Positions 25,292-63,066 of a DNA stretch of 64,000 nucleotides are shown piece after piece. The notes beneath the pieces are model-generated. The model made no database searches, was not told the origin of the DNA, and was given only the letters and a program-made list of their open reading frames with translations. Source of the stretch: a virus; the IMG/VR virus record IMGVR_UViG_3300042691_021876, positions 1-64,000 of that record, one strand, 5' to 3'. Both the position numbers and the translations under genes were made by a program. Within the stretch, counting starts at the first letter, position 1. The number at the start of each line of letters is the position of its first letter.

Positions 25292-31996
<6,705 letters not shown>

Positions 31997-54911: not shown

Positions 54912-54950
54912 TGGTAAAATTAACCAATAGTTTTCACATATGCAAATTTT
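54912..54950 (-). promoter_or_regulatory. class I promoter without an upstream box
   Basis: TTTG-N20-TAATTTTA; spacer nearly identical to the 10496 and 59059 copies. Confidence 0.7.
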
Positions 54951-54968: not shown

Positions 54969-55439
54969 TTATTTTAATTGTTTTATTCTTGACCTTAACG
55001 CAGCAACCGCAGTTTCAAAATCATTAAATAATGGAACGTTAAATCTATGACAAACTATTTCAACATTACCTTTTCTCCAGAATCCGTCCGGACAGCAAAC
55101 TATTAGTCTATTACTATTAGCATGTAATCCTAATTCCAATAAAGTAATTGGTGATTTAGATTCTGGTAAGATGTTCATAAAGATTATATCAGCTTCTTCC
55201 AATTTGTCCATTTCCCAATTTACTTGACCATTAAACTCTGGATTAGTAGCTCTTTGTTCCCATGAAGAATCCCATTCATCTCTTCGAGGATTAAAGAATG
55301 TTACTTCACAATCATCGAGTTTATTCTGTACCTCTGTCTGCCAATCAACAGACGAACCCATATCTATGGAACCAGCTAAAAAAATCCCAGGGTAATTGTC
55401 CTGGGATTGATTAGAGCTAGTAGGTTTAATTACTTGCAT
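54969..55439 (-). CDS. nucleoside 2-deoxyribosyltransferase-like protein
   Basis: IFLAGSI, DWQ, FNPRR, QVNWE, SPITLLELG. Confidence 0.85.
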   Translation of the reverse strand: MQVIKPTSSNQSQDNYPGIFLAGSIDMGSSVDWQTEVQNKLDDCEVTFFNPRRDEWDSSWEQRATNPEFNGQVNWEMDKLEEADIIFMNILPESKSPITLLELGLHANSNRLIVCCPDGFWRKGNVEIVCHRFNVPLFNDFETAVAALRSRIKQLK

Positions 55440-56943
55440 TAGTCAATTCCATTATTTTAGCTCTGATTGCAGTCAAAGTAGTTTGGTTATAGAAGTTTCC
55501 GTTTTCATATATTGTTTGTAATACTCCCGTGTTCTCTTCTTCAGCAGAACATTGTGTTTTTACAGTGTATACACCGTTTTCTTCAATCACAGCACATTTA
55601 CCTTTTAATGATTTTTTAGTACCATCATCAGTTATTGGTTCTTTATAGATGTCAATCCCTTTTCCGTTATTCTCAAACCAAGCACCTTTTGCAGCGTACC
55701 CAAAAGTATCACGTGTAGTGAATTGGTATGTAAATGAACCTACACCTAAAACAATATTAGTTGAAGCAAATCCTTTAGCTTCTAATCTTGTATAGATTTC
55801 AATTTGACGGTCAAGTGTAATTGAATCTCCATAGATTGCTCCAATATGTGGGTCTAATACTTTGTAACCTTGAGCATTAATAGTACCGCCAAAGATATCC
55901 CAAAGTAATTCAATTACTCCTTTTTCAGCGGAATCCACGTTTTCATCGTATGGATTTTGTTCAGCATTCCAGCTTTTACCACAGATGATATCTACTGGGT
56001 CACCAGAGTCAGGACGAATTACAAGTTTACCATCACGTGACATGATTTGATCTTTGTTTGCTGGTAAATACTCAGTAATTAATTTCCATAGGTCAAAGGT
56101 ATCCGCTACGATAGAAAGGATTCCTTTATCAAATTCTGTTAACCAATCGGATATCATTTGTTGCTCACCTACGGTAAAAATTTTGGTAGTTGAGACAGAG
56201 TGCTCAGAAGCATTTACTGAAGCTATGCAAACTTCATCCTCAGATTCATCATAGAAATAACGGGCAGCTGGAATGACCACGATTGAGTCAGAACCCATAA
56301 AAGAAAAGGCGTGTCCAAGACCAGAAGATAAACTATCCCAAGGAGATAATCCACGAGCTGAGAAATCATGGCATAAGTAAGGAATTAACCAAGCATTTTC
56401 AGGGTCAGTTTTAGTTACCCATTTTACAAGGTTTCTTTTATACTGTAATGCAATAGTTGCAGAAGTAGCTGGTTTCCAAGCTAAAGATGAGATAATAGTT
56501 TCAAGATATAATGTTAACCAAGCAAAGCCAGGTACAGTGTTAATGAAAGTCATATGAGGAATATTTGCATCGGTCTCAATTCCTTCAGGTAAGGCTTTGA
56601 TTTTAATAGGCAAGTATCCTAAATCGTGTAGTGCTTCAAAGTGCGAAGCATCGTATGGCATACCTAAGTATTTTGCCATGTCAGTTCCAAATTTGGTTGC
56701 AGTTTCTCGTGGCATGCTAAAGAAATTCTCTTGCCATTCAGCATGTAACCAACGAACAGTTAATTGATGACCAATGGAAAGAATTTTGTCAATTCCTTTT
56801 GGTGCATGTTTTGTACTTCTTGGGATCCAAGTTCCGTATAAGAAATCCGTGCCTGGGGCAAGCATTCTTTTATGACCAACTTTATATCCGTCAGAATAAT
56901 AAGGAGCAGGTGCTCTAAAAGTCTTTTGTAATTTAGATAACAT
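55426..56943 (-). CDS. nicotinamide phosphoribosyltransferase-like (candidate Namat of NARP1)
   Basis: SDGYKVGH, HDFSARG, ASEHS, SIVADTFD, VIRPDSGDP, IYGDSIT, FTTRDT, KKSLKG. Confidence 0.9.
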   Translation of the reverse strand: MLSKLQKTFRAPAPYYSDGYKVGHKRMLAPGTDFLYGTWIPRSTKHAPKGIDKILSIGHQLTVRWLHAEWQENFFSMPRETATKFGTDMAKYLGMPYDASHFEALHDLGYLPIKIKALPEGIETDANIPHMTFINTVPGFAWLTLYLETIISSLAWKPATSATIALQYKRNLVKWVTKTDPENAWLIPYLCHDFSARGLSPWDSLSSGLGHAFSFMGSDSIVVIPAARYFYDESEDEVCIASVNASEHSVSTTKIFTVGEQQMISDWLTEFDKGILSIVADTFDLWKLITEYLPANKDQIMSRDGKLVIRPDSGDPVDIICGKSWNAEQNPYDENVDSAEKGVIELLWDIFGGTINAQGYKVLDPHIGAIYGDSITLDRQIEIYTRLEAKGFASTNIVLGVGSFTYQFTTRDTFGYAAKGAWFENNGKGIDIYKEPITDDGTKKSLKGKCAVIEENGVYTVKTQCSAEEENTGVLQTIYENGNFYNQTTLTAIRAKIMELTNASN

Positions 56944-56965
56944 AATTTATATTTGTTTTAAATTA

Positions 56966-57027
56966 ATAGTTAAAATTAACCAAAATAAAGATACTAAGCA
57001 AATATTTTGGTGCGAAGTTATTAACAA
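56966..57027 (-). promoter_or_regulatory. class I promoter with TTATTAACA box (57018-57026)
   Basis: TGTTAATAA-N15-TTTG-N20-TAATTTTA. Confidence 0.8.
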
Positions 57028-57501
57028 TTATAAAAGTTCTTGTTTAACTATTGTAATTGCTTGGCCTAAAAGATTAAGACCTTTCCAACACATTGGATAC
57101 TCAACATTAGGATCGTCTTCAGCCATTCCTATACCCCAGATATTATCAAGTGGTGATGCCTCAACCATGATTCTTTTACCTGTAAGCATTAATGCAGCTT
57201 TAAGATCAGGATTTTGTTTAAACTTAAAATAGTTTCCTTTGATTACAATGCTTAGGCAAACTTTATCCCAAACACTTTTGTCAAAGTTTTTAATCATACG
57301 GCCATATTTCTTTTGCTCTCTTGGATTAGATTCTTCCATGATAAGTTTAGCAATTTCCGTATCACCAAATGTTAAGGCTTTTTGGTGCATCATGTATTGT
57401 TCACATGAATTGTAAGTGATACCGTCAATAGTCATATTTGCTTTATGCCATTGAGAGTAAATACCACTCCAGAAGAATACGTATTTATTTGTGGTTTTCA
57501 T
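57028..57501 (-). CDS. NADAR family (YbiA-like) ADP-ribosylhydrolase
   Basis: FFW..YSQW, EQYMMHQKA..FGD, KFKQN, VEASPLDNIWGIG, GLNLLG. Confidence 0.92.
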   Translation of the reverse strand: MKTTNKYVFFWSGIYSQWHKANMTIDGITYNSCEQYMMHQKALTFGDTEIAKLIMEESNPREQKKYGRMIKNFDKSVWDKVCLSIVIKGNYFKFKQNPDLKAALMLTGKRIMVEASPLDNIWGIGMAEDDPNVEYPMCWKGLNLLGQAITIVKQELL

Positions 57502-58142
57502 TATTGTGGTAAGATTACGATTGTTACTTTACAATCAATTAATTCTGTTTGAATAATTTTTTTGATTCTTTCCCAATCGCCACCAGCAAGACCAGCGCCA
57601 ATTTTAGGAAGACCTATATGAAGTCCTTTAAACTCAACATTTAGTTTTCTCATTACGATTGTGATTGCTTCATAATCCACGGGTTTGGAAACGCCGTCTA
57701 TATGATTCTTGCCATAACGATATTGTGTATAGGCATTCACAACAGTTAATTCAGGATCATTGTTAATGTTAGAATCCAATTTGCGATTCCATAGACCACC
57801 TTTAGATATTACAAAGGTTTCATAGTCAATGCAACCTAATTTGTTTATGCTTGGACCTTTAAGTTCTAAGTTAAATTTATCACAGCCAAAAGCTTGAGCC
57901 ATATGTGGAGCAATACCAGCTGCCATAGTTGAATGACAATTACAGCCATGAACAATTACATTAAAAGCACCTTCTTTAGCTAAGGCTATAAGATCACCGG
58001 TAACTTCAGAATATCTTGCTTTTAGTTTTGCTTCTTCTAATACATTAGTGATTGGCGATTCTTGGCATGGATCTATTTTACATTCACCATTACAAGGACC
58101 GTGTTCACAATACCAACAGTGGAGTCCAATACCTATAGCCAT
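57501..58142 (-). CDS. macrodomain protein with Cys-rich N-terminal extension
   Basis: GDL, IVHGCNC..TMAAGIA, VNAYTQY, LPKIGAGLAGGDW. Confidence 0.9.
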   Translation of the reverse strand: MAIGIGLHCWYCEHGPCNGECKIDPCQESPITNVLEEAKLKARYSEVTGDLIALAKEGAFNVIVHGCNCHSTMAAGIAPHMAQAFGCDKFNLELKGPSINKLGCIDYETFVISKGGLWNRKLDSNINNDPELTVVNAYTQYRYGKNHIDGVSKPVDYEAITIVMRKLNVEFKGLHIGLPKIGAGLAGGDWERIKKIIQTELIDCKVTIVILPQ

Positions 58143-59044
58143 TAGAATACGTTATAAACGTTAAGTTTATGTAATTCATTATCGTTTTGGATTGAAAACT
58201 CTGAATCATTTTCAGGACGGATTGAATTAGTTGTGTAAATTGCATCAAACAATTTGTTTAGTTCCTTTAGACCGCTTGAAAAGATACCGTGTGTGATTAC
58301 TAATGTTATAGTATCATTAAATATTTCTTGTGGTCGGATTTCACGAATTGCTTTTGCTAATTCAATAAAGGTTCTACCGCCATCACAAATATCATCAACA
58401 ATAACAAAGTTTTGTGGACCTGCTCCGTAATTACTTTGTGGTATTTCAGTATGAGTAATCTTACCGGTTTTAACATCACGGTGCTTATTTGCCACAATAA
58501 TTTTATCAATACTGAATGTTTCAGCCACATGATAAATTTTCTTTAATGCACCAGCATCAGGAGAAACAAGATGTAAGGTTTCTCGAGCGCCGTTTTTATT
58601 ATCAATCTTGGTTAAAGCAAACTTAACTAACCCTGTGTTATCAGTTTTCTTGAAGTTATTTAAACATGCTTCAAGAACATCGGAATGAGGATCCAATACA
58701 TGCACCTCTGAAAAATTCTGAGAGTTAATGATTGGGCAAATAACAGTCTTAAGGTAATTTGTAGAACCTATTAAGAATTTTCTATCAGATCTTGCACCTA
58801 AGAAATACGGAACATACAGACTAACAGATTTTGCACCAAGTTCAAGTAATGCTTGGTTTGCACAAATGATTAATTCCAAATCACGAAATGAGTTTAATCT
58901 TGATTTGATTTGAACTGATTTGATTTTGTTATTAAAAGAATACCCACTTGGCTCAATCGTAATAGATTGTTGACCGTCAGGAAAGCTTGAGATTTTAAAT
59001 CCAATTTCGGATTTTGTAGAATCTGCTAAATTAAGTATGTTCAT
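58142..59044 (-). CDS. ribose-phosphate pyrophosphokinase-like (candidate Adps of NARP1)
   Basis: FPDGQ, PYFLGARSDR, LDPHS, VSPDAGA, IVDDICDGGRTF, THGIFS; start re-assigned to MNILNL. Confidence 0.9.
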   Translation of the reverse strand: MNILNLADSTKSEIGFKISSFPDGQQSITIEPSGYSFNNKIKSVQIKSRLNSFRDLELIICANQALLELGAKSVSLYVPYFLGARSDRKFLIGSTNYLKTVICPIINSQNFSEVHVLDPHSDVLEACLNNFKKTDNTGLVKFALTKIDNKNGARETLHLVSPDAGALKKIYHVAETFSIDKIIVANKHRDVKTGKITHTEIPQSNYGAGPQNFVIVDDICDGGRTFIELAKAIREIRPQEIFNDTITLVITHGIFSSGLKELNKLFDAIYTTNSIRPENDSEFSIQNDNELHKLNVYNVF

Positions 59045-59058
59045 ATTATTTTTATTTA

Positions 59059-59123
59059 GATAGTTAAAATTAACCAATTGTTTTCACAATGGCAAACTTT
59101 AATCTAATAAGTTATTAACAACT
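59059..59123 (-). promoter_or_regulatory. class I promoter with TTATTAACA box (59112-59120)
   Basis: TGTTAATAA-N15-TTTG-N20-TAATTTTA. Confidence 0.8.
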
Positions 59124-59685: not shown

Positions 59686-60633
59686 TTAAGAATTTAAAAT
59701 GATTTGAGTTTCAAATACTGCTGCAAGCATTGTAATGCAAGGATCAATCACGTGTACTCGTTGTGCTTGATAGTGAGCAATCTTAATTAAGATTTGCGGT
59801 ACCTTTGCAAATTTGGTAGGATGATTATCTCTTATGTAATCTGGAAGCTCTTGACCTAATGCATGAAGAACATCATCAACTTTACTACTATAATTTGTCA
59901 TTAAGAATTTGTAATTCTCTTGAGAATTTGGAGCACCAAGCACAAGATCAAATACATCACGATATGAATAGTTTAATTTACGAACATCTTCAGGCTGGAT
60001 TTCTTTTACACCTTGAACATGGAAAGTTTGAATTTTATTTACAATAGAACGCATGTCAGGAAAATTCCTTTTCACAAATTCAATTACTGCTTCTTTACTA
60101 ATAGTAATTCCACAAGCTGTAAAGATTTGGTATGATCTTTTAATAAACTCAACCATTACTTCTTTTTCTTCTTCTTTACTTAAAAAGTCAAAAGGAATAC
60201 AAGTAAACCTAGATTGAACTGGGTCTGGTACTTTATTAATGTAGTTACAAGTTCCGATGAATCTTGCGTTATTAGCAAATTTCTCAATCGTTGCTCTAAG
60301 AGCTTTGTAAAATTGATCACTTGCTCCGTCCATCTCGTCAAGAATAACCACTTTAAATTTTTCAGCGCCATCAAGAAGACTAATGGTAGAACACCATGTA
60401 GATATCTTATCACGGATTACATCAACTGAACTTTCGTCAGATACGTTAATGTAAAGTGTTGGATAGTTTTTTGCTAACACTTTTGCTAAAGAGGTTTTAC
60501 CTAAACCGGCTGAACCATAGAACAAGTAGTTCTGATGTAATTCGCCGTTACCTAATGATTGTCTGATTCTTTTTGGTAGAATCATTTGGTCCAAATTCTG
60601 TGGACGATATTTTTCTGTAAATAGTTTGCTCAT
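59686..60633 (-). CDS. clamp loader large subunit (gp44/RFC-like)
   Basis: EKYRP, GSAGLGKT, ILDEMD, FIGTCNY, QSRF, FPDMR. Confidence 0.92.
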   Translation of the reverse strand: MSKLFTEKYRPQNLDQMILPKRIRQSLGNGELHQNYLFYGSAGLGKTSLAKVLAKNYPTLYINVSDESSVDVIRDKISTWCSTISLLDGAEKFKVVILDEMDGASDQFYKALRATIEKFANNARFIGTCNYINKVPDPVQSRFTCIPFDFLSKEEEKEVMVEFIKRSYQIFTACGITISKEAVIEFVKRNFPDMRSIVNKIQTFHVQGVKEIQPEDVRKLNYSYRDVFDLVLGAPNSQENYKFLMTNYSSKVDDVLHALGQELPDYIRDNHPTKFAKVPQILIKIAHYQAQRVHVIDPCITMLAAVFETQIILNS

Positions 60634-61446: not shown

Positions 61447-63066
61447 TTAGAATCCGCCAGCTCCGCCATCTTGGCCTGCTTGAATTTCTTGTTGTTTCTT
61501 CATATATTCAAGATCCTCAATTTCTTGTTTCTTGTTAAGACGGTTATTTTCAGCAATATCAGAAGGATCCAATTTAAGATATTTCTCAACAACAAATTGT
61601 GCATTGAAGTAAGGTACATCAACATCCATTCCCGAAGCATCTTTACGTTTAACCATGATACCCATCATTGAAGTTACAAATTCAATACGTTTGGACATGA
61701 TCTCCATTGTTTTCATTTCCTCAAAGACATTGTCCGCGTTAAATTTTAAAGCAAGGGTAGATTTGAATAATTCGTCTTCAGCAAGTTCTGGGTAAAGAAG
61801 ACCCATTTGAATAAACAAAGGTTTAAGTAAAACTTCTTGAAAGATTGAACGTAAACGATTAATGAATTTTGCAAAACGGATTTCATCACGGTTAGTACTG
61901 TCTGCAGAGAAATTAACTGTTCCTCCACCTTCACCTTGGTCAAAACGTGAGAATGGTATTTTAGAATCTTCTTGAAGTTTAATCTTAAAATATTTAACGA
62001 TATCGTTATTACTAAGATCATAACCTTCACCACCAATAACTGAGATATCAGGTTGCTCACCATTTTTAGATGGGAACAAGTAGTTTTTGTAAAACTGCAT
62101 TGACGGTTGTCCGTTTACTGCAAGTTCTCCAGATTCATAGTTAAGAGAAATATCTTCTTTGTAGATTGACATCATCTCTGCTAGAGATTCTTTTGCTTTT
62201 TGCGGAGATTTTGTGCCAATAGGAACTACCATCTTCATACGGAACGATGAGTTCATAATGTTCCAAATAATTCTAGAGTTCTCCATGATACGTAAAAGGT
62301 TAAAAGAACGTACCAATCTTTCTACATAAGATACACGAGAAGTAAAGTTACCTTTAGCATACGATATGTAAATAATCTGTGAGTCAAGAAGAACCCTTTT
62401 CATTGAAGGAATATCTTCGTACTGAACCCAAATCTTTTTATAGTTCCCGTCTCCGGATTTTTCAACACCAGGACGTAATGATGTAGGGTCTAATTCTTTA
62501 AAACCTACAATGTTTTTACCGTCTGGGTCAAAGATAATCTCAAAGGCAAGGAAACCGTCAATTAAAAATTGTCTAAAGTAACCCCAACCATCATGCCCTT
62601 CATTAAAATGGAAGTGAGAGTAAATCTTTTTAAACTCTGTATTAATTTCACCGCAGATTTCATCAACTGTATCTGGTGAAAGAATTTCTTTAACTTTTGA
62701 AACATCAGGTTTTACAAAATAATTACCTTCATCATAAACGATTGCTTCATCAGATAATGTATCAAGAATAAACTCAATCTCACCGTTCATTGCAAATTTA
62801 CGAAGATATTCTCTACGAGATTTGTAATCTTTGTCAAAGAAAGCAATAAACTTTTTTGAACCTACATCGGATAATGCAAGTGAGTATAAGAATTCTTCAG
62901 GAAGATAACCTTGATTTCCAAATTCTGCTTCAGTTACACCGACTGCTCTAGACTGTCGGATAACCATGTCTTCATACCTCATTCCAAGGTTTGCAAGGTT
63001 TTTCAGACTCTTAGATAACTGTCCGAAAATTGGATTGACTCCTGTTCTATCGATAAAACCTGCCAT
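61447..63066 (-). CDS. portal protein (gp20-like)
   Basis: FRQFLIDG, SYVERLVRSFNLLRIMENSRII, YF..KL...SKIPFSRF, RDEIRFAKFINRLR. Confidence 0.93.
   Translation of the reverse strand: MAGFIDRTGVNPIFGQLSKSLKNLANLGMRYEDMVIRQSRAVGVTEAEFGNQGYLPEEFLYSLALSDVGSKKFIAFFDKDYKSRREYLRKFAMNGEIEFILDTLSDEAIVYDEGNYFVKPDVSKVKEILSPDTVDEICGEINTEFKKIYSHFHFNEGHDGWGYFRQFLIDGFLAFEIIFDPDGKNIVGFKELDPTSLRPGVEKSGDGNYKKIWVQYEDIPSMKRVLLDSQIIYISYAKGNFTSRVSYVERLVRSFNLLRIMENSRIIWNIMNSSFRMKMVVPIGTKSPQKAKESLAEMMSIYKEDISLNYESGELAVNGQPSMQFYKNYLFPSKNGEQPDISVIGGEGYDLSNNDIVKYFKIKLQEDSKIPFSRFDQGEGGGTVNFSADSTNRDEIRFAKFINRLRSIFQEVLLKPLFIQMGLLYPELAEDELFKSTLALKFNADNVFEEMKTMEIMSKRIEFVTSMMGIMVKRKDASGMDVDVPYFNAQFVVEKYLKLDPSDIAENNRLNKKQEIEDLEYMKKQQEIQAGQDGGAGGF

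Follow-up and report, generated by a model that had tools for sequence, protein, structure and literature searches.

The DNA analysed here, called the window throughout, comprises positions 1-64,000 of IMG/VR record IMGVR_UViG_3300042691_021876, a viral record of 106,534 bp with a CheckV completeness of ~37%. We focused on five minus-strand genes at 54969-59077, in which a predicted NARP1 system for the reconstitution of nicotinamide adenine dinucleotide (NAD+) is combined with three further predicted enzymes. The record derives from a T4-like phage: a gp44-type clamp loader is encoded at 59686-60633, a T4-type portal protein at 61447-63066. The G+C content is ~34%. Since the closest cultured relatives of its genes belong to phages of Tenacibaculum and Cellulophaga, a host within the Flavobacteriia (Bacteroidota) is probable. 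A megablast search of the 4.2-kb region against deposited phages gave no match. The list of open reading frames (ORFs) together with Pfam and PHROG scans and, for the macrodomain, a fold model gave the following genes, to which two putative promoters are added:

58142-59044 (ORF open from a TTG at 59077), minus strand: Prs-like protein, predicted Adps; PF00156, PHROG 619 at 4e-66
57501-58142, minus strand: macrodomain protein; Pfam Macro at only 0.0072, PHROG 335 'phosphatase' at 2.8e-39, fold model
57028-57501, minus strand: NADAR protein; PF08719 at 1.5e-48
55426-56943, minus strand: Nampt-like protein, predicted Namat; PF04095 at 3.5e-33, PHROG 448 at 4e-159
54969-55439, minus strand: NDT-like or DNPH1-like protein; PF15891 at 1e-33
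59065..59122, minus strand: putative promoter P1 ahead of the Adps gene; GTTGTTAATAAC element, TTTGC box and TTGGTTAATTTTA box
56971..57027, minus strand: putative promoter P2 ahead of the Namat gene; box architecture as in P1

This is the gene order (Prs-like, macrodomain, NADAR, Nampt-like, NDT-like) that an earlier reading made from the letters alone, hereafter the sequence-only reading, had proposed. All junctions abut or overlap except for an 84-nt gap between the NADAR and Nampt-like genes, and the NDT-like gene overlaps the end of the Namat gene, including its stop codon, by 14 nt. Adps and Namat are spaced 1.2 kb apart, each with its own promoter box. The same order recurs in at least six other viral contigs and is therefore not a chance juxtaposition. 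Its remark that an NMN adenylyltransferase (NMNAT; NMN, nicotinamide mononucleotide) is absent extends beyond the window: the whole 106.5-kb record, itself ~37% complete, contains no match to NMNAT (PF01467), Nudix (PF00293), KptA (PF01885) or RyR domains.

The box TTGGTTAATTTTA is present in 14 copies in the window against 0.75 expected, and 13 of them are on the minus strand (sites 219, 2492, 4579, 6384, 10498, 13388, 14217, 14871, 16181, 22826, 54915, 56971 and 59065). Alignment of the 13 minus-strand copies revealed a shared architecture of ~70 nt in which an upstream element, GTTGTTAATAAC or GTTTAACAAAAA, is followed by a TTTGC box, the TTGGTTAATTTTA box and, ~25-30 nt downstream, an ATG. 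Because copies precede Adps (59065-59077), Namat (56971-56983) and the downstream 5'-3' exonuclease gene (54915-54927), the cluster forms two transcription units, P1-Adps-macrodomain-NADAR and P2-Namat-NDT-like. The TTG at 59077 falls inside the promoter box, so the true start of Adps is probably the ATG at 59044. A generic sigma-70 scan gave no signal above shuffled sequence. We take TTTG and TAnnTTTG to resemble the -33 and -7 elements of Bacteroidota sigma-A. Of the 'two boxed early promoters' proposed previously, the boxes thus stand, while early timing is at most plausible. The upstream element occurs in two variants, GTTGTTAATAAC and GTTTAACAAAAATTTAAC, which may mark two promoter classes.

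NARP1 as known from Bacillus phage SPbetaL1, Vibrio phage ICP1 and the E. coli phage Bas63 consists of Adps (ADP-ribose pyrophosphate synthetase) and Namat (nicotinamide ADP-ribose transferase). According to the pathway, a host NADase (SIR2-, TIR- or SEFIR-type) would split NAD+ into ADP-ribose (ADPR) and nicotinamide, Adps would convert ADPR and ATP to ADPR-PP, and Namat would swap the pyrophosphate of ADPR-PP for nicotinamide to regenerate NAD+. The Nampt-like protein of the window found its top PDB matches in 9w5w and 9w5x (1e-118), whose chain numbering agrees with the SPbetaL1 Namat residues given in PMC12774641, with human and bacterial Nampt at ~1e-42. The hallmark of Namat is an adenine 'selectivity clamp' formed by the SCH motif GS-X-Phi-X-Phi-X-Phi-TRD, in which X is aromatic, and by the SCL loop, which has Arg, Lys or Tyr in third place and, in the case of Lys or Tyr, a stacking residue directly behind it (PMC12774641). 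Residues 402-412 of the window protein read GSFTYQFTTRD (GSFTYQYNTRD in SPbetaL1) and agree with the SCH consensus; in the SCL loop, Lys45 occupies the position of SPbetaL1 Arg40 and is followed by His46, which would stack on the adenine. The catalytic and NAD-contacting residues are kept as well (D18, Y20, F194, S195, R197, D219, H248, R310, D312 and the TRD), among them D219, the Asp that reads nicotinamide, H248 as the catalytic His, and the residues touching ribose and phosphate, and the protein is 44% identical to the Namat of ICP1.

The Prs-like protein reached none of the cut-offs for housekeeping Prs: it scored 84 bits on TIGR01251 (cut-off 113) and 31-66 bits on the Prs equivalogs (cut-offs 296-536). 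By BLASTP it is 34% identical (E 3e-38) to the Adps of ICP1, an enzyme with published structures and demonstrated activity (PMC13586617). All the ADPR/ATP-site residues named for ICP1 Adps are conserved (F18, R87, F92, H121, D161, K185, D212, D213, C215 and D216), with K185 corresponding to K198 of the window protein and the D212-D213-I-C-D216 stretch intact. The PP loop (C215-S220 in ICP1) reads CDGGRT in place of CDGAAS; beyond it F221 is retained, and Glu stands in place of F223. The clamp motif, the failed Prs cut-offs and the conserved ADPR/ATP site uphold the original assignment, and we are highly confident that the pair is NARP1, that is, Adps and Namat, and not a housekeeping Prs/Nampt pair. 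Clamp, ADPR/ATP site and the lack of an NMNAT are shared with the three systems named above. The window differs from them in that Adps and Namat are split by two extra genes and have separate promoters, and in that a fifth gene overlaps the Namat stop. The NARP1 core as such is known biology.

The closest cultured Namat is that of Tenacibaculum phage PTm1 (64% amino acid identity). Within 6 kb on either side of this gene (L001, 91683-105188) we found no Adps-like, macrodomain, NADAR or NDT-like gene, and the partner of the PTm1 Namat, if any, is encoded elsewhere.

For the protein encoded directly behind Adps, an AlphaFold2 model with a predicted local distance difference test (pLDDT) score of 82 showed a macrodomain of the TARG1/Poa1p/BT1257/DarG class. 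As the fold alone does not discriminate Poa1p from TARG1 or DarG, we turned to profile evidence and searched the PDB with a family profile built from 20 members. This profile matched BT1257 (1e-13), yeast Poa1p over its full length (5e-10) and SCO6735 (6e-10). TARG1 was aligned only in part (4e-8), and the DarG structures (1e-5 to 9e-5) only with the first 64 positions, the N-terminal third. The sequence-only reading had considered a DarG-type thymidine de-ADP-ribosylase, and this assignment found no support: the curated DarG models were missed by a wide gap, NCBIfam NF048014 giving 18 bits against a cut-off of 250 and the PADLOC DarG model 19 bits over 36 residues. H23 and S30 of Poa1p correspond to H65 and T72 of the window protein. 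The family carries an invariant AYTQ (Q140) that aligns with MIGQ of BT1257 and SCO6735; placed by inspection only, without residue-level superposition, Q140 falls at the position of the catalytic lysine of TARG1 (K84) and DarG (K80). Of the cultured homologues, the closest is encoded by Cellulophaga phage phi17:2 and annotated as cd02901, which we take to be the Poa1p-like macro family. In Acinetobacter phage TAC1 a homologue abuts the Prs-like/Nampt-like pair.

A Poa1p-like macrodomain gene, Adpp, has been described in the operon of 15% of NARP1 phages (Osterman et al.; 10.64898/2026.01.28.702374). Adpp turns ADPR-1''-phosphate, the product of NAD+ phosphorolysis by RES-domain proteins (aRES), into ADPR, and the three-gene NARP1-AP of Vibrio phage Gary, whose KNV71_gp137 was the Adpp tested, overcomes aRES (10.64898/2026.01.28.702374). 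The window resembles the Gary system in having an apparently Poa1p-like macrodomain gene between Adps and Namat; the two were likened by position and Poa1p-likeness, KNV71_gp137 did not appear among tblastn matches sampled from the whole ranking, and the window differs in a Cys-rich extension of the macrodomain and in the NADAR gene that follows. We consider it probable that the macrodomain is an Adpp-type ADPR-1''-phosphate phosphatase, which would likely convert aRES-made ADPR-1''-phosphate to ADPR so that NARP1 still works. Reversal of DarT2 marks by this protein is not supported in view of the full-length Poa1p profile match and the Adpp-like position between Adps and Namat.

Several points weigh against a phosphatase. 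Foldseek searches with the model found TARG1, Poa1p, BT1257 and DarG all at ~1e-8, and F152 of Poa1p is Ala in the window's family. De-ADP-ribosylase activity is reported for relatives such as SCO6735 in which Gln takes the place of the TARG1 lysine, so that a macromolecular substrate is possible. Moreover, the family is common in T-even phages that lack NARP1 (for example RB69 Tk.4), and hence its role extends beyond NARP1-AP. The N-terminal ~30 residues of the window protein (58050-58142, minus strand) are rich in cysteine (C9, C12, C17, C21 and C26; HCWYCEHGPC..C....C) and may form a small zinc knuckle. This extension is kept only in the two nearest relatives (L003 and L005) and is modelled with low confidence.

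The NADAR protein scored 165 bits on PF08719 and 143 bits on TIGR02464 (cut-off 74), with 8bau as its best PDB match (4e-14). E34 and K41 show the E-x6-K spacing of the mutated residues E36 and K43 of AdfN-T4 and align with 8bau and YbiA; E114 aligns with the Glu of YbiA and 8bau that we took as the last-strand Glu. The last-strand residue differs by subfamily, being His in AdfN-T4, Asp in DarT1-linked NADARs and Glu in YbiA-type proteins (PMC11825919, PMC11125620), and Glu114 therefore places the window NADAR with the YbiA type, outside the AdfN-T4 and DarG1 clades. YbiA-type NADARs act on ADP-ribosylated guanine (guanine-ADPr) in vitro (PMC11125620). Indeed, every NADAR subtype tested, including YbiA and three unrelated phage NADARs, hydrolyses guanine-ADPr, and the tested phage proteins counter DarTG1 (PMC11825919, PMC11125620). 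By analogy, anti-DarT1 activity may be expected of the window NADAR with a little less than even chances, and the enzyme would most likely remove ADP-ribose from guanine, or another base, in nucleic acids. It shares the NADAR fold, the catalytic Glu/Lys pair and the make-up of a stand-alone protein with the phage AdfN proteins (T4 gp30.3, Bas32, Bas60), but is Glu-type (YbiA-like) instead of His-type as in T4 and is embedded in a NARP1 operon. Iyer et al. (2022) noted that genes for NAD+ salvage lie next to phage NADARs and made a case for soluble compounds with N-linked ADPR as their substrates.

The fifth gene encodes a member of PF15891 (116 bits) whose AlphaFold2 model has a pLDDT of 92.8. 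Its best structural match is 4MCJ (BDI_0649, Joint Center for Structural Genomics; 1.9e-33, with 42-46% identity across the aligned chains), and Foldseek returned 4MCJ, followed by YtoQ, nucleoside 2'-deoxyribosyltransferases (NDTs), the CMP N-glycosidase MilB and DNPH1. E102 is invariant in 51 family members and lies within SPITLLELG, a stretch that we take to resemble the NDT/DNPH1 nucleophile motif; likewise invariant in the PF15891 alignment are E76, D57, R52, R53 and the VCCPDGFWRKGN block. E102 is thus the putative nucleophile, the enzyme looks catalytically competent, and it appears built for an anionic substrate. The Rossmann-like NDT fold and a conserved Glu in an S-x5-E-x-G nucleophile motif are common to the NDT/DNPH1 (Rcl)/MilB superfamily. 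PF15891 is nevertheless a separate family with invariant NPRR, QVNWE and VCCPDGFWRKGN, and its context is NAD+ and ADPR, not nucleoside salvage. In the literature searched, no PF15891 member is characterised and neither 4MCJ nor YtoQ has a characterised function; the ESM Atlas gives the Pfam name only.

The NDT-like enzyme would most likely cleave the N-glycosidic bond of an NAD+-derived or ADP-ribose-linked nucleotide, thereby providing ADPR or nicotinamide for the pathway or destroying an immune signal. Three versions of this idea can be formulated. The enzyme might act on a compound or adduct with N-linked ADPR, either by releasing the ADPR or by swapping the base for nicotinamide. It might instead release nicotinamide for Namat or Nampt, which fits because the gene adjoins Namat and occurs in Nampt+NadM clusters; the weak point here is that NMN as a substrate would be futile in Nampt+NadM clusters. 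Or it might destroy a signal or adduct apart from NAD+ synthesis and be merely co-located. Together with NADAR, the cluster would encode two predicted intact N-glycosidases within one NAD+/ADPR network. The two genes are often directly adjacent elsewhere (L011, L182, L105, L113 and L125), and a Moraxellaceae metagenome-assembled genome (MAG) carries NADAR beside an NDT-like gene with no NARP1 gene nearby (L124:7399-8423). This adjacency hints that both N-glycosidases act on related substrates. In Tunturiibacter phage Tunturi_5 a polyvalent protein of 1262 amino acids (gp225, L163:5950-9738), encoded directly upstream of the portal gene, combines an NDT-like domain with an ART-PolyVal ADP-ribosyltransferase domain. 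This protein is annotated as MutT/NUDIX; Pfam detected no Nudix domain in it at E <= 0.001.

We analysed how these genes are linked in other viral contigs. With the NDT-like gene as seed, a Namat-like gene was present within 8 kb at 42 of the 72 viral loci. Six or more gene orders were seen, which included Adps-NDT-Namat, Adps-macro-NDT-Namat, Namat-NDT and Adps-macro-NADAR-Namat-NDT, and most of the Namat-like genes concerned carry the SCH motif. The 80 best viral loci found with Namat as seed, and hence chosen independently of the NDT-like gene, contained Adps (68/80), NDT-like (43/80), macrodomain (23/80) and NADAR (12/80) genes, and the exact five-gene order of the window occurred six times among them. 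The NDT-like gene was closer to Namat than to Adps at 29 of 33 loci. Unsupervised clustering of same-strand neighbours within 4 kb of the NDT-like gene recovered Namat (48 loci), Adps (31), macrodomain (19) and NADAR (15), as well as NadM-type NMNAT-Nudix (15) and then KptA (7). On a tree of 126 NDT-like sequences NARP1 linkage is clustered, with 14 changes against 29.5 in shuffles, and appears in several clades; the window protein sits in a viral clade with 16 of 22 members linked to NARP1. The NDT-like gene is a recurrent companion of Namat and Nampt genes in phages and bacteria.

These associations have limits. The counts come from related contigs, not independent events, and show association, and single-query tblastn undercounts divergent macrodomain and NADAR genes. 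A clade of 33 bacterial NDT-like sequences shows no linkage to any NAD gene. Jumbo phages of Caulobacter, Brevundimonas and Xanthomonas likewise carry the NDT-like gene with no NAD gene nearby. In the cultured jumbo phages CcrColossus, Gurke, X1, RsoM2USA and L02 it lies away from NARP1, and the linkage is therefore clade-specific, not universal. Furthermore, macro-NDT-Nampt clusters with a NadM-type NMNAT-Nudix are found at L033, L035, L038, L039, L044, L051, L071 and 7 bacterial loci; the Nampt of these NARP2-like clusters lacks the Namat motif, and NARP2 makes no direct use of ADPR. Because NDT-like genes occur beside NARP2-type clusters and also without NAD genes, the feeding of ADPR is one of several readings. 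NDT-like genes accompany both kinds of nicotinamide-dependent NAD+ rebuilding. Among the closest relatives of the window, in L003 and L004 (6093-7988), a 631-amino acid SPFH/Band-7 gene lies between Namat and the NDT-like gene, with a like gap in L005, and a second Band-7 gene is found beside the NDT-like gene in L026.

In bacteria, 306 confirmed hits to the NDT-like family were reduced to 80 loci. At 11 of the 80, Adps-like, NADAR, NDT-like and Namat-like genes occur together, and all 11 are from Bacteroidota chromosomes or MAGs assigned to Chitinophaga, Flavobacterium, Dokdonia, Fluviicola and Ferruginibacter (L144, L105, L088, L113, L125, L126, L133, L135, L136, L150 and L152). The Namat-like proteins of the Bacteroidota loci carry GS[FY]TY[QE][YF][NV]TRD. 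Pfam scans covered two of these operons, L144:2792-10467 and L105:4616-9246 (both on the plus strand), and both are headed by NrtR and contain KptA. The L144 operon encodes, in this order, NrtR, Prs-like, NADAR (by tblastn), a macrodomain, KptA/Tpt1, a 2-oxoglutarate (2OG)-Fe(II) oxygenase, a metallophosphoesterase, DUF4291, NDT-like (by tblastn), Nampt-like and another macrodomain protein. In L105, from Chitinophaga rupis, the order is NrtR, Nampt-like, NADAR, KptA, NDT-like and Prs-like. The effector of NrtR is ADPR (PMC2330246). In such cells KptA would spend NAD+ to form ADPR-1'',2''-cyclic phosphate (Appr>p) and nicotinamide, the phosphoesterase and the macrodomain would yield ADPR, and Adps and Namat would restore NAD+ under the control of NrtR, so that the operon may represent a closed loop regenerating the NAD+ spent by KptA. 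A Prs-like gene paired with a Nampt-like gene, under the ADPR-sensing repressor NrtR, is also known from the nrtR-prs-nadV operons of bacteria (Rodionov et al. 2008, PMC2330246) and from bacterial NARP1 (PMC12774641); the Bacteroidota versions analysed here add the NADAR and NDT-like companions seen in the window. The phage cassette lacks NrtR, KptA, 2OG oxygenase, metallophosphoesterase and DUF4291 and has phage promoter boxes; it looks like a trimmed, promoter-swapped copy of an NrtR-regulated host-type operon holding KptA.

Taken together, we think it likely that the five genes form an extended NARP1 counter-defence cassette with two transcription units and three accessory enzymes. The sequence-only reading had cast the cluster as an erase-and-recycle module: a DarG-type macrodomain and NADAR would reverse DarT2 and DarT1 marks, respectively, and the freed ADPR would feed Adps and Namat. 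The NADAR half of this proposal is in keeping with the activity of all tested phage NADARs against guanine ADP-ribosylation and DarTG1 (PMC11825919, PMC11125620) and with the intact catalytic residues of the window protein, and the macrodomain does belong to the TARG1/DarG/Poa1p fold group and shares a transcription unit with NADAR and Adps. But the macrodomain falls far below the DarG cut-off, matches DarG over positions 1-64 and Poa1p over its full length, and carries the invariant Q140 where TARG1 has its catalytic lysine (by inspection), while a published and tested role, Adpp, exists for a macrodomain gene in that very position of NARP1. The window NADAR, in turn, belongs to the Glu type, AdfN-T4 to the His type and DarG1 to the Asp type. 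A further objection is one of quantity: by our reasoning the adducts on DNA are few and the ADPR released from them tiny relative to the NAD+ pool, which makes recycling from this source doubtful. The more general idea that hydrolases feed ADPR to NARP1 has precedents in Adpp and in RyDEP, a glycosidase inserted into the NARP1 operon of mycobacteriophage DyoEdafos (10.64898/2026.05.28.727677), and it holds up; as a whole, erase-and-recycle is unlikely.

The bacterial operons raise a role outside of defence, in which the genes would recycle NAD+ spent by a Tpt1/KptA-type 2'-phosphotransferase during tRNA repair. Appr>p would be processed to ADPR-1''-phosphate, then by the macrodomain to ADPR and onwards via ADPR-PP to NAD+, with NADAR and the NDT-like enzyme clearing side products. 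The Bacteroidota operons, in which the same genes, with motif-positive Namat-like proteins, are joined by NrtR, KptA, a calcineurin-like phosphoesterase and two macrodomains, speak for this proposal, and NDT-like genes elsewhere adjoin the RNA-repair genes HAD_SAK_2, Thg1 and RlaP. However, the phage record, as far as it is complete, has no KptA, and experiments have established that NAD+-depleting defences are countered by phage NARP1 and NARP1-AP. Both roles could coexist, yet we regard repair in place of counter-defence as quite improbable. We judge classical salvage to be very improbable. Here the Prs-like enzyme would make phosphoribosyl pyrophosphate (PRPP) and the Nampt-like enzyme NMN, a host NMNAT would finish the synthesis, and hydrolysis of nucleotides by NADAR and the NDT-like enzyme would be the source of ribose-5-phosphate or nicotinamide. 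In vitro, Namat can indeed still make NMN from PRPP, at roughly half the Nampt level (PMC12774641), YbiA-type NADARs hydrolyse ribosylamine 5'-phosphate, DNPH1- and MilB-type enzymes release (deoxy)ribose-5-phosphate, and NDT-like genes also lie beside Nampt+NadM clusters. Against this stand the adenine-clamp motif of the window Namat, which confers preference for ADPR-PP, a Prs-like protein that fails all Prs cut-offs and keeps the ADPR contacts of Adps, and the missing NMNAT. For the same reason the extended NARP1 cassette differs from NARP2 (Nampt plus NMNAT), as matches to PF01467 and PF00293 are absent from the ~37% complete record.

Most parts of the cassette have been published: NARP1 in 2024, bacterial NARP1 and NARP1-AP in January 2026, RyDEP-NARP1 in May 2026, anti-DarT1 NADARs in 2023-2025, and the neighbourhood of NADAR and NAD-salvage genes in 2012 and 2022. 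The new part is the NDT-like gene as a NARP1 companion. In the literature searched, we found no mention of PF15891 or its Pfam name Nuc_deoxyri_tr2, nor an NDT-like gene described as a partner of NARP1, and the NARP1, NARP1-AP and RyDEP papers mention neither NADAR nor an NDT-like gene. An earlier mention in two papers from the Aravind laboratory is possible, as de Souza & Aravind 2012 and Aravind et al. 2015 probably describe neighbourhoods of NADAR, KptA and NAD-salvage genes. According to a virus-wide survey of 2022, viruses carry only ARC-type members of the superfamily to which the NDT-like enzyme belongs.

The conflict between phages and bacteria is to a large extent fought over NAD+, and two accessories that widen the reach of NARP1 were reported in 2026: Adpp, which counters aRES, and RyDEP, which is directed at Thoeris signals. 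We speculate that the NDT-like enzyme represents a third class of accessory, an N-glycosidase or base-exchange enzyme that would convert an N-linked, NAD+-derived immune molecule to ADPR or, by exchange with nicotinamide, directly to NAD+. Candidate substrates would be His-ADPR, N1- or N7-cyclic ADPR and an ADP-ribosylated base or nucleotide. This proposal is tentative, and we would not bet on it. Like RyDEP, the NDT-like enzyme and NADAR would be glycosidases inserted into a NARP1 operon whose ADPR product feeds resynthesis; RyDEP adopts a RyR-domain fold and acts on the O-glycosidic bond between two riboses, whereas the window lacks a RyR domain and encodes N-glycosidase folds. If the third-accessory proposal is true, NARP1 would reach defences outside the coverage of Adpp and RyDEP, and the Bacteroidota gene set would be a closed, NrtR-controlled loop regenerating KptA-spent NAD+. 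PF15891 is the commonest of the NDT-like, macrodomain and NADAR companions of Namat in a large group of uncultured phages and also occurs in bacterial NARP1 operons. The NDT-like protein hence offers a specific target for inexpensive tests: it may catalyse a new counter-defence reaction or point to a new defence-made NAD+ derivative. The bacterial operons in turn suggest a purpose for cellular NARP1, the recycling of NAD+ spent by KptA, which both the NrtR paper of 2008 and the bacterial NARP1 paper of 2026 left open. What makes the finding valuable is a new candidate accessory enzyme open to testing, together with the KptA-NARP1 operons of bacteria.

Elsewhere in the window, positions 25292-31578 (minus strand) encode two collagen-repeat proteins (PF01391) of 1169 and 919 amino acids, which are probably fibre or decoration proteins. 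Their genes account for a local rise in G+C to 0.40-0.46.

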